DNA of 64,000 nucleotides from a virus. Lineage: Duplodnaviria; Caudoviricetes. The notes below the pieces were generated by a model, which worked only from the letters and a program-made list of their open reading frames with translations, made no database searches and was not told the DNA's origin. The DNA lies in IMG/VR virus record IMGVR_UViG_3300028364_000013, one strand, 5' to 3'. Shown here piece after piece: positions 35,674 through 37,385 of this stretch. Each line of letters opens with the position of its first letter. The stretch's first letter is position 1. Position numbers and translations under genes: made by a program.

Positions 35674-36102
35674 TTATGATGCTGTTTTTTTAATGTTATT
35701 AATATGAAAATTACTAACAGGGTCTTCTTTTATTCCTTGAGAATCAACCCACTGTTCGTAGTATTCTTTTTGAGCAAGACGTAAGCTACCTGTTAACCTA
35801 CGAGCTTGGTCGCATGCTTCAATAGCCATAGATGTTGCTTTATGATTTAAGTCTGGTTCACGAAATACAGAAACACACACTCCTCTTTGTCGAAGTTTTT
35901 CAACAAGAGACAATAAAGACTCTTCGTCTTCAATTGATAAACATGCTACGTATTGTGAATTTTCGTACCATTCCTTAAATTGGTCTGGATACTCGACTGC
36001 AAATTGAGACATTGCATGAGCCGATTGCGCAATTTGAGCTCCAGGATGCAAATCTCTTGTAACAACTATTCTAAGTTTTTCATTATTTTTTACCTATTTC
36101 AT
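35674..36102 (-). CDS. Peptidyl-tRNA hydrolase, Pth2-like, with in-frame TAG at codon 3
   Basis: MK*VKNNEKLRIVVTRDLHPGAQIAQSAHA...VFREPDL...TSMAI; no other in-frame ATG before the conserved first strand. Confidence 0.75.
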
Positions 36103-36170
36103 ATCTAAGTTATTTTTAATTATTTTGGTGTTTATTTTTATACGTAAAAATTTATAAAATGTTTCTATAA

Positions 36171-37283
36171 TTATAAACTTTCTATTAATTGACTCATTTT
36201 CTTTAACAAATCTTCATTATATGCAATTCTTAATAATTTAATTTCACTTTTACTACAGTAATCAGTTTTAATGCTATCGTTTATTTGCGTTAATTCCAAT
36301 GCTTTTTCTCCCCCAAAATAATCAATAGACTTAAAATGTTGCCTACCATCAAATTCAATACAAATATTGTAATCAGGCAAGTAAAAATCAAATGGTAACT
36401 CCATTATATTCCTACATTCTTTAAATTTCTTCTGCCTTTCAAATTTTATTAAATTTTCTTTTAATAATTTTGAAATCCTTTTTTCTCCCTTTGACTCATT
36501 GCAATGTGGACAACCAATACCTCTAATGTGATGTGTTGGCACCTGCTCAAATTCATCGTGAACTGGGCAAATTATTTTTATTTTTGTTTTAGAGTTAATA
36601 TATTTAACAAAAGAATAATCATATTTATTCTCATGAATCAAATGTGACTCCATTATAAAATATTCTTGTGATTTTTTAAGCTTATCAGCACGCTCTATTA
36701 TAGCGCATTTATTACAACCACGCCCAGATAAATGGTCATGAGGAGTTTGTTGAAATTGTCCATGATTTGGACAAATTATTACAATTGGTTTTTTTGAATT
36801 GTTATATTCCGTAAAAGAGTAATCATATTTATTTGAATGGACACTTTGAGCTCTTACTTTGAAATCTTCGAGAGTTAACTTCATTCTATCATTCCCACAC
36901 GATGGACAACCCCTATTAGATAGGTGATTCAAAGGCATTTGATTAAATTCTCCATGATTTTGACAAATTATTGTAACTGGAGTTTTATAATTCTTATAAT
37001 TTACTTTGCTATAATTGTAGCAATCACCATGAATTGATATTGCTTTTTTTACAAATTCTTCTTTTGATAAGGATTGTTTGTATGATTTTTTTAAGTTTCC
37101 ACAACCTGGACAACCAACCCCATTAGCGTGATGAAAAGGCAATTGATTAAACACTCCATGAACTGGACATTTTATATCTATTTTAGTTCTTGCATTTTTA
37201 TATTCTACAAGACTATAATCGTAAAAATTATTATGAATTTTTTGCGCCTTTTTAATGAAGATGTTTTTGTTTTTTTCTTTCAT
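36171..37283 (-). CDS. Putative homing endonuclease: four CPxHGxFxQxPxxH..GCPxC repeats plus PD-(D/E)xK domain
   Basis: LPFDFYLPDYNICIEFDGRQH. Confidence 0.85.
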   Translation of the reverse strand: MKEKNKNIFIKKAQKIHNNFYDYSLVEYKNARTKIDIKCPVHGVFNQLPFHHANGVGCPGCGNLKKSYKQSLSKEEFVKKAISIHGDCYNYSKVNYKNYKTPVTIICQNHGEFNQMPLNHLSNRGCPSCGNDRMKLTLEDFKVRAQSVHSNKYDYSFTEYNNSKKPIVIICPNHGQFQQTPHDHLSGRGCNKCAIIERADKLKKSQEYFIMESHLIHENKYDYSFVKYINSKTKIKIICPVHDEFEQVPTHHIRGIGCPHCNESKGEKRISKLLKENLIKFERQKKFKECRNIMELPFDFYLPDYNICIEFDGRQHFKSIDYFGGEKALELTQINDSIKTDYCSKSEIKLLRIAYNEDLLKKMSQLIESL

Positions 37284-37310
37284 ACTAATAAGTAGTAAAA
37301 AATTTTCAAC

Positions 37311-37385
37311 AAGTTGTGCGCCAGGATGAATATCACGTATTGTGACTATTCTTAATTTTGAATTATTAATCTATAAGTTTTTCAT
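37311..37385 (-). pseudogene. Diverged duplicate of the Pth2-like 5' end, also with in-frame TAG (codon 5), in frame with the endonuclease
   Basis: MKNL*INNSKLRIVTIRDIHPGAQL. Confidence 0.7.

Follow-up and report, generated by a model that had tools for sequence, protein, structure and literature searches.

Introduction

Suppressor tRNAs are common in phages, but few of their targets are known except in genomes that are fully recoded. In gut phages that read TAG as glutamine, recoding has been proposed to act as a post-transcriptional regulator, and standard-code relatives of these phages carry suppressor tRNAs (Borges et al., bioRxiv 10.1101/2021.08.26.457843; Peters et al., PMC9523058). For the two tRNA(CUA) genes of the jumbo phage XacN1, no targets were identified by the authors of that study (PMC5852040). 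Here we analyze a Pth2-type peptidyl-tRNA hydrolase gene with an in-frame amber codon (TAG) close to its start, found in a stretch of 64,000 nucleotides (hereafter the window, to which positions refer unless otherwise stated) of the IMG/VR virus record IMGVR_UViG_3300028364_000013 (Duplodnaviria; Caudoviricetes). Given the conservation of this codon and a linked tRNA(CUA) gene, we think it probable that Pth2 output depends, through a conserved amber gate, on the phage suppressor tRNA in competition with release factor 1 (RF1).

The locus shares with the phages of genetic code 15 (crAss-like, Lak and other gut phages) a phage tRNA(CUA), in-frame TAG codons and a standard-code host. Unlike in those phages, in-frame TAG codons occur in four genes of 117 kb, and TAG still terminates about 11% of the open reading frames (ORFs). 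Two of the TAG codons are ancient, each fixed at one site near the start codon, and the putatively gated genes are translation- or RNA-related genes flanking the tRNA gene, not structural or lysis genes.

In prfB, which encodes RF2, an early in-frame UGA makes output depend on the efficiency of termination at that codon. The Pth2 gene is likewise a gene of the translation apparatus with an early in-frame stop. However, in prfB the stop is bypassed by a +1 frameshift and the product sensed is that of the gene itself, whereas the frame of the Pth2 gene is unchanged, escape from the stop would occur via a suppressor tRNA, and the factor reading the stop is not the gene product. Another likeness is offered by the bar minigenes of lambda and by the toxicity of minigenes in E. 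coli with defective pth, namely a start, very few sense codons and a stop, together with a conceptual link to Pth. The bar minigenes are free-standing and work by tRNA sequestration. In contrast, the mini-ORF described here shares its frame with a conserved enzyme domain that begins only 2-11 codons farther on; its stop is always TAG, and a tRNA(CUA) is linked to it.

The same Pth2 family is found amid phage tRNA genes in XacN1 and in two cluster C mycobacteriophages, Catera (gp153) and Myrna (gp84). In XacN1, however, this domain forms the C-terminal end of a longer ORF, which has no early TAG. The Pth genes of Catera (NC_008207; start at 1474-1485 of the extracted locus L038) and Myrna (NC_011273) begin with ATG TAG GTG or GTG TAG GTG. 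In these two phages, unlike in the window phage, the GTG that follows the TAG has a Shine-Dalgarno sequence of its own and could credibly serve as the start, so that gating is not required. Their tRNAs 130-250 nucleotides downstream of Pth (2105-2178 of L038 in Catera and 1472-1543 of the extracted locus L037 in Myrna) are annotated as tRNA-Arg and tRNA-Ser; the anticodon loops given by ARAGORN, TTCTAAC and TTCTAAA, correspond to CUA. In the literature, no paper linking an early amber codon to phage Pth2 was found. The site-specific amber gate at the Pth2 start, linked to its putative decoder, would be a real and conserved variant of suppressor-tRNA recoding that is apparently undescribed.

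The Pth2 gene and its amber codon

The intact Pth2 gene has 142 codons, the TAG included, and runs from ATG (36102-36100) to TAA (35676-35674). It begins with ATG AAA TAG GTA, after which 138 more sense codons follow, to give MK*VKNNEKLRIVVTRDLHPGAQ. One frame continues across the TAG without a frameshift. The product after the TAG matches PF01981 (PTH2) with 40 bits against a cut-off of 23, over profile positions 2-114 of 115, and a six-frame search gave 38.3 bits for the same profile. The match opens at the KLRIVV strand. An AlphaFold model of the post-TAG product (predicted local distance difference test score, 80) places strand beta-1 at residues 6-12, and the best Foldseek matches of the model are Pth2 structures (2zv3, 1q7s, 3erj and 1xty; template modelling scores of 0.70-0.74, about 113/115 residues, E of about 1e-7). 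By profile and modelled fold the product is a Pth2-type hydrolase, for which hydrolysis of peptidyl-tRNA is predicted.

The earlier note on this DNA had reported an early TAG both in the intact gene (MK*) and in a diverged upstream duplicate (MKNL*), and had argued that one sequencing error could not explain it. Both codons are read directly from the DNA. Short contigs identical across both TAG codons are present in other lake-water runs, so that the codons are no assembly error, and the codon is also present in all 26 distinct relatives compared below.

Translation could in principle start downstream of the TAG, and TTG 36051 had been named as such a start. Initiation at this TTG would cut away strand beta-1. 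Since beta-1 belongs to the Pth2 fold, the N-terminal strand is needed. In the relatives this position is ATT, CTT or CTA, and most of them have no canonical start between the TAG and beta-1. TTG 36051 as an alternative start was therefore not upheld.

Conservation of the early TAG

A protein search gave 32 close homologs of the window Pth2. The loci compared were 19 metagenome loci, two viral loci and four huge-phage genomes from GenBank (LR756500, LR756501, LR745206 and LR756504; 460-735 kb). The 26 distinct 5' ends come from independent assemblies, with 36-88% amino-acid identity to the window protein. A megablast search with the locus found nothing similar among GenBank phages, and a single-protein scan of viral contigs gave no relative. 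The earlier note had proposed a survey of phage Pth2-like genes for an early TAG. None of the 26 lacked it: TAG was codon 3, 4 or 5 in 26/26 5' ends. The Pth2 domains of XacN1, Xoo-sp13 and Lak have no early TAG.

The sequence around the codon is variable. Ten forms of leader precede the TAG (for example ATG AAA, ATG AAA AAA, ATG AAA AAC TTA, ATG TCG and ATG ACA CAC), the last codon before it may be AAA, AAG, TTA, CAC, TCG, AAT or ACA, and its distance from beta-1 ranges from 2 to 11 codons. Nearby codons differ synonymously (AAA/AAG, CTA/TTA/CTT, ATT/ATA/ATC), while the TAG is invariant. Outside the early site, 25 Pth2 genes hold one TAG against 191 CAA or CAG codons. The conservation is thus position-specific, with selection acting on one site and not on a synonymous glutamine codon. 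The body of the gene shows clear purifying selection over the 36-88% range of identity. Present in all relatives examined, and mostly beside a phage tRNA that could read TAG, the codon looks like a built-in translational switch, not a defect.

The presence of Gln at this site in database homologs (MKQISNN..., MKKQVTNN..., MKNLQIH...) was considered as independent evidence for glutamine and rejected, because the DNA reads TAG and the gene caller had used TAG=Q. The 113-amino-acid database versions are code 11 truncations of TAG-bearing Pth2 genes. By shortening such genes to about 113 amino acids, or by silently rendering the TAG as Q, gene callers hide the feature in databases.

A start codon, one to five sense codons and a stop, as in ATG AAA TAG and ATG AAA AAC TTA TAG, have the form of a bar-type minigene; the likeness to lambda bar drop-off drawn in the earlier note is an analogy. 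Leaders of 2-4 sense codons fall within the size range of minigenes that cause drop-off. It is conceivable that drop-off from an ORF of 2-4 codons acts back on Pth2 or is detected by it, so that Pth2 would regulate itself. Pth2 is of the enzyme class that clears drop-off products, and leader length, counted from the ATG, is confined to 2-4 sense codons, whereas the distance between the TAG and the domain ranges over 2-11 codons. We nevertheless regard this explanation as unlikely. The accumulation of peptidyl-tRNA has no plausible route to increased read-through, the last sense codon before the TAG is not conserved, and the position of the leader in frame with the conserved domain favors read-through. 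Moreover, two further genes of the phage described below, for a methyltransferase-like protein and an RNA ligase, have a TAG at codons 17 and 4, respectively, and neither is linked to Pth.

The codon following the TAG is ATT in 15 of the 26 5' ends, GTT in five, GTA in five and ATA in one; its first base is always a purine. In E. coli work, a purine 3' of the amber codon is a context that favors suppression. The same codons also allow a different interpretation, in which ATG-(1-3 codons)-TAG is a mini-ORF, the ribosomes terminate at UAG and reinitiation at the adjacent Ile or Val codon yields Pth2. This would agree with the restriction of the codon to ATT, ATA, GTT or GTA, with the annotated GTG starts directly after ATG TAG or GTG TAG in Catera and Myrna, and with the GTG, ATT or ATG that follows the TAG of the methyltransferase-like gene. 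However, GTA and GTT, found in 10/26, are no known bacterial start codons, and the far better starts ATG, GTG and TTG occur in 0/26. Reinitiation leaves unexplained both the exclusive use of TAG, where 79% of the stops are TAA, and the linkage to tRNA(CUA). In addition, the ligase TAG precedes GAT, and the peptide upstream of the TAG in the methyltransferase-like protein is part of its conserved domain. Reinitiation thus appears improbable to us.

The linked tRNA(CUA)

The tRNA(CUA) gene of the window encodes a canonical cloverleaf with a variable loop of 5 nucleotides and A73. Thirteen tRNA(CUA) sequences fit a single cloverleaf, in which 14/20 pairs show compensatory changes and the loop letters TCTAA are invariant. 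The earlier note had asked whether early TAG codons co-occur with tRNA-CUA; among the loci extending far enough, the gene mostly lies within about 100 nucleotides downstream of Pth2. The order in relatives is Pth2, tRNA-Ile(GAU), tRNA(CUA), an odd tRNA-like gene, tRNA-Ile and the small methyltransferase-like gene, with few bases between them. The tRNA genes follow Pth2 on the same strand. Since there is no space for a promoter between Pth2 and the tRNA genes in these relatives, the Pth2 message and its putative decoder are probably made from one transcript. Of the huge phages, LR756501 has two tRNA(CUA) genes 2.4 kb from Pth2, and LR756500 has one at 1.1 kb.

A pyrrolysine tRNA was considered and rejected, because the cloverleaf is canonical and 'tRNA-Pyl' is merely ARAGORN's label for the anticodon. 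Comparison with other phage tRNAs gave no amino-acid identity for tRNA(CUA).

A leaky stop might hold Pth2 at a very low level through near-cognate tRNAs of the host, independently of the phage tRNA, or the gene might be decaying. Some loci indeed lack a detectable adjacent tRNA(CUA). The purifying selection on the gene body and the linked, covarying tRNA(CUA) both speak against this explanation, and decay could not hold one stop codon fixed in 26 lineages. We give very little weight to either version.

Genetic code of the source contig

The window is part of an IMG/VR viral contig of 117,229 bp with 34% G+C, at least 29 tRNA genes and a CheckV completeness of about 53%. On this contig, TAA accounts for 79% of the stops, and 12/109 long non-overlapping ORFs terminate in TAG. 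The coding cover was 0.82 under code 11, 0.86 with TAG as sense and 0.85 with TGA as sense, the control. Since the gain from TAG as sense is essentially no larger than that of the TGA control, and since TAG serves as a terminator, the genome does not appear to be recoded. In-frame TAG codons were found in just four genes of the 117 kb: Pth2, the methyltransferase-like gene, the RNA ligase gene and ORF 4043-4426. Beyond these, a codon-usage scan revealed no further in-frame TAG flanked by coding sequence on both sides.

An obvious alternative is genome-wide recoding of TAG to glutamine (genetic code 15), by which the Pth2 TAG would be one Gln codon among many. The phage tRNA(CUA), the low G+C content and the probable Bacteroidota host are as in crAss-like and Lak phages. 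With the contig only about 53% complete, late genes may lie on the missing half of the genome, and the huge-phage loci gain some coding cover with TAG as sense. On the other hand, TAG ends 12 of the 109 long ORFs, ORFs of structural-gene size are uninterrupted under code 11, and gene callers picked code 11 for long related contigs. The Pth2 TAG, moreover, is at one site in 26/26, and is found once in about 192 Gln-type codons elsewhere. We therefore consider genome-wide recoding very unlikely.

No release-factor domain (PF00472) was found in the contig. The 3' contexts of terminator and sense TAG codons were not clearly distinct in the small numbers available. A scan of 33400-37600 for sigma-70 promoters and terminators gave no excess over the shuffled expectation. 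Shine-Dalgarno sequences are wanting at the genes of this phage. This fact, together with the approximately 70% identity of its RNA ligase to Bacteroidota proteins, hints at a host that is probably a member of the Bacteroidota.

Outside the window, at positions 115026-116984 of the contig (minus strand), a frame of 304 codons and a patatin-like frame of 347 codons are parted solely by an in-frame TAG. They may be either a read-through fusion or two abutting genes.

Other genes with an in-frame TAG

The earlier note had treated Pth2 as a special case. This view did not hold, since an equally conserved TAG is present in the methyltransferase-like gene and two more genes carry young TAG codons. 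In the methyltransferase-like gene, TAG is codon 17 in the window and in 11/11 distinct relatives, and the next codon is GTG, ATT or ATG. Remote homologs from a library of 1.8 billion proteins align through the TAG site, which falls in a conserved N-terminal helix, and carry E, D, S or Q there.

The RNA ligase gene begins with ATG AGT AGC TAG GAT. In place of this TAG, CAA stands in the four closest relatives, of which one shares 95% protein identity, and the N-terminus is common to Bacteroidota homologs, at about 70% identity. In the fourth gene, ORF 4043-4426, 77/80 homologs have Trp at the TAG site.

Since the methyltransferase TAG lies inside an aligned domain and the ligase TAG replaces CAA in a shared N-terminus, these alignments indicate that this phage must decode UAG as sense. 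Comparison with relatives places the TAG codons in two classes: those of Pth2 and the methyltransferase-like gene are ancient, fixed and flank the tRNA gene, and those of the ligase and ORF 4043-4426 are young and lineage-specific. The young ones are one transition away from CAG or TGG.

Several further observations were made on these genes. The methyltransferase-like protein has APNF in place of the catalytic NPPF found in 124-142 of 155 remote homologs, and may have an altered activity or specificity. Its domain also occurs within giant proteins of 3000-5000 amino acids. Chromosomal proteins labelled 'RNA ligase family' in Bacteroidota, among them Chondrinema, Catalinimonas, Marinilabiliaceae and Chitinophagales, share about 70% identity with the ligase; no RNA ligase was found in the related record behind locus L012, which was searched whole. 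Eight codons upstream of its TAG, ORF 4043-4426 has His where 78/80 homologs carry Tyr. This copy may be decaying or just partly rescued by the suppressor. A 364-kb contig on record has an identical 71-amino-acid N-terminal product of this ORF.

Proposed mechanism

The idea in the earlier note that Pth output may be tied to competition between RF1 and a suppressor gains from these results. The co-occurrence of tRNA(CUA) with Pth2 makes this link the best reading of the locus, and we hold it to be probable. Since the genome otherwise uses the standard code, the Pth2 amber would be a conserved translational gate, not an instance of ordinary recoding. Ribosomes starting at the Pth2 ATG would reach the UAG after two to four codons. 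There, either RF1 would release a tiny peptide, or the phage tRNA(CUA) would insert an amino acid and translation would proceed to full-length Pth2. The Pth2 gene would thus be intact and functional, with the full-length enzyme made solely through decoding of UAG by tRNA(CUA) against the host RF1. The output of the methyltransferase-like gene would likewise be tied to the amount and activity of the suppressor tRNA. With the gate at the extreme 5' end, failed attempts would be cheap, each costing a di- to tetrapeptide.

We infer from the sequences both the decoding of the Pth2 UAG by tRNA(CUA) and a physiological purpose of the gating. Pth2 might be supplied in step with suppressor activity, which would raise read-through, stalling and the load of peptidyl-tRNA. 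Alternatively, expression might be delayed until the tRNA has accumulated, or the arrangement might keep the codon and its decoder linked through mosaic recombination.

Several observations weigh against the proposed gate. The codon after the TAG always encodes Ile or Val, which leaves room for initiation right after the TAG, and in Catera and Myrna the GTG in this position has a good Shine-Dalgarno spacing. No tRNA(CUA) was found in the available sequence of loci L009, L010, L019, L042 and L043, which are few and short. In locus L006 (6440-6513, low coverage), the anticodon loop reads TTATATC and the D-arm is changed, while the Pth2 TAG is retained; this mutated tRNA could reflect either assembly noise or a lineage without a decoder. 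Finally, the residue at the TAG is ambiguous: CAA (Gln) in the ligase relatives, an invariant Trp for ORF 4043-4426, and in the methyltransferase homologs E, D, S or Q. These residues give hints toward Gln and toward Trp as the inserted amino acid.

A more far-reaching version of the amber gate is possible, though we put it forward only tentatively. The early amber might be a sensor with logic like that of the prfB UGA: Pth2 would be made in proportion to the success of the suppressor over RF1 and would thereby track the disturbance that the suppressor causes. In addition, [start-TAG-Pth2]-[tRNA(CUA)] might be an ancient mobile cassette, common to lake and groundwater phages with probable Bacteroidota hosts and to huge phages of 460-735 kb, and vestigial in cluster C mycobacteriophages (ATG TAG GTG and a downstream tRNA read as CUA). 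Such a cassette might provide a target for the 'orphan' amber suppressor tRNAs of jumbo phages.

The locus offers a standard-code lineage with two deeply conserved candidate targets beside the tRNA gene, one of which is a translation quality-control enzyme. It is a concrete, testable case of a single stop codon as a gene-specific switch. With young TAG codons (from CAA/CAG and TGG) accumulating in the same genome, it may also represent an early or stable intermediate toward stop-codon recoding.

Table 1. Coordinates of the features in the window
Feature	Position	Strand	Basis or remark
Pth2-type peptidyl-tRNA hydrolase gene	35674..36102	-	PF01981, AlphaFold model, Foldseek
In-frame amber, codon 3 of intact Pth2, followed by GTA	36094..36096	-	direct reading
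tRNA with anticodon CUA (amber suppressor)	34686..34758	-	ARAGORN; Rfam tRNA 63 bits
tRNA-Ile-like gene directly 3' of Pth2	35574..35649	-	Rfam 43 bits; tRNA-Ile(GAU) in relatives
Second endonuclease-like ORF, between tRNA-Ile and tRNA-CUA	34815..35516	+	not in relatives (5 nucleotides between both tRNAs there)
Duplicated Pth2 5' fragment, 24 codons, TAG at 37373-37371	37314..37385	-	direct reading; leaders of relatives
Conserved upstream motif TTTGCGTATATATA	37416..37429	-	upstream of Pth2 in about 20 loci
Homing-endonuclease-like ORF, 370 amino acids, between remnant and intact Pth2	36171..37283	-	Pfam
Small methyltransferase-like gene, TAG at 34083-34081 (codon 17)	33622..34131	-	TAG in 11 distinct relatives; weak Pfam MTS match
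RNA ligase gene (PF09414), TAG at codon 4 (19358-19356)	18564..19367	-	Pfam 5e-23
128-codon gene of unknown function, TAG at 4213-4211 (codon 72)	4043..4426	-	80 homologs span the site

Duplicated fragment and mobile-endonuclease-like genes

The duplicated fragment of 72 nucleotides begins with ATG (37385-37383) AAA AAC TTA TAG ATT and reads MKNL*INNSKLRIVTIRDIHPGAQ. It is akin to relatives in the 'MKNL*' subfamily, whereas the intact copy belongs to type 'MK*V'. After its TAG, 19 Pth2-like codons follow, and the frame then remains open into ORF 36171-37283. The earlier note had linked the duplicate to this inserted endonuclease, and the two are indeed in frame. The ORF has its own ATG (37283), however, where its first repeat begins, and read-through is not needed for its expression.

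The motif TTTGCGTATATATA has a single exact match in the window, upstream of the duplicate, and it probably serves the Pth2 unit as promoter or operator. In relatives, the motif, the ATG and Pth2 follow one another without an intervening ORF, which marks ORF 36171-37283 as a sporadic insertion. This ORF contains repeated treble-clef zinc modules, and its Pfam matches are DUF723 three times, DUF4379 and CapR. Only the DNA-binding treble-clef repeats (DUF723, DUF4379) score above threshold; in the nuclease-like C-terminal region the DUF5889 match is weak, with 19.9 bits against a cut-off of 27.1. In the simplest history, the duplicate would be a remnant of the resident Pth2, and the endonuclease-like gene would have come with a complete Pth2, replacing all but the first 24 codons.

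The tRNA array between Pth2 and the methyltransferase-like gene shows other irregularities. ARAGORN did not report the tRNA-Ile-like gene, whose anticodon loop, CTGATATTT, is enlarged. Behind this gene lies an element of about 60 nucleotides (35480-35545) that is conserved in locus L009 as well. The array is split by ORF 34815-35516, which encodes a zinc finger and an (I/L)E-x-(D/N)G-x-x-H motif. A full-size tRNA-like gene (34552-34628, minus strand; Rfam, 53 bits) has a CATC-TTCG-GATG tetraloop hairpin at the end of its anticodon arm and resembles a tRNA body that lacks a decoding loop; for its orthologues, ARAGORN gives 'gaaa' or 'cga' anticodons. Farther along, a tRNA match extends over 148 nucleotides (34148-34295, minus strand), that is, with an insertion of about 75 nucleotides. 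Alleles vary near this match, and other lake-run contigs connect 34178 to 34268 or 34602 through different letters. Elsewhere in the window, ARAGORN reported a tRNA-like gene with a two-base 'anticodon' (tt) at 3741-3813 (minus strand). Close to the Pth2 locus, a GIY-YIG/NUMOD3 gene (38957-39670, plus strand) is a further mobile-endonuclease-like gene.

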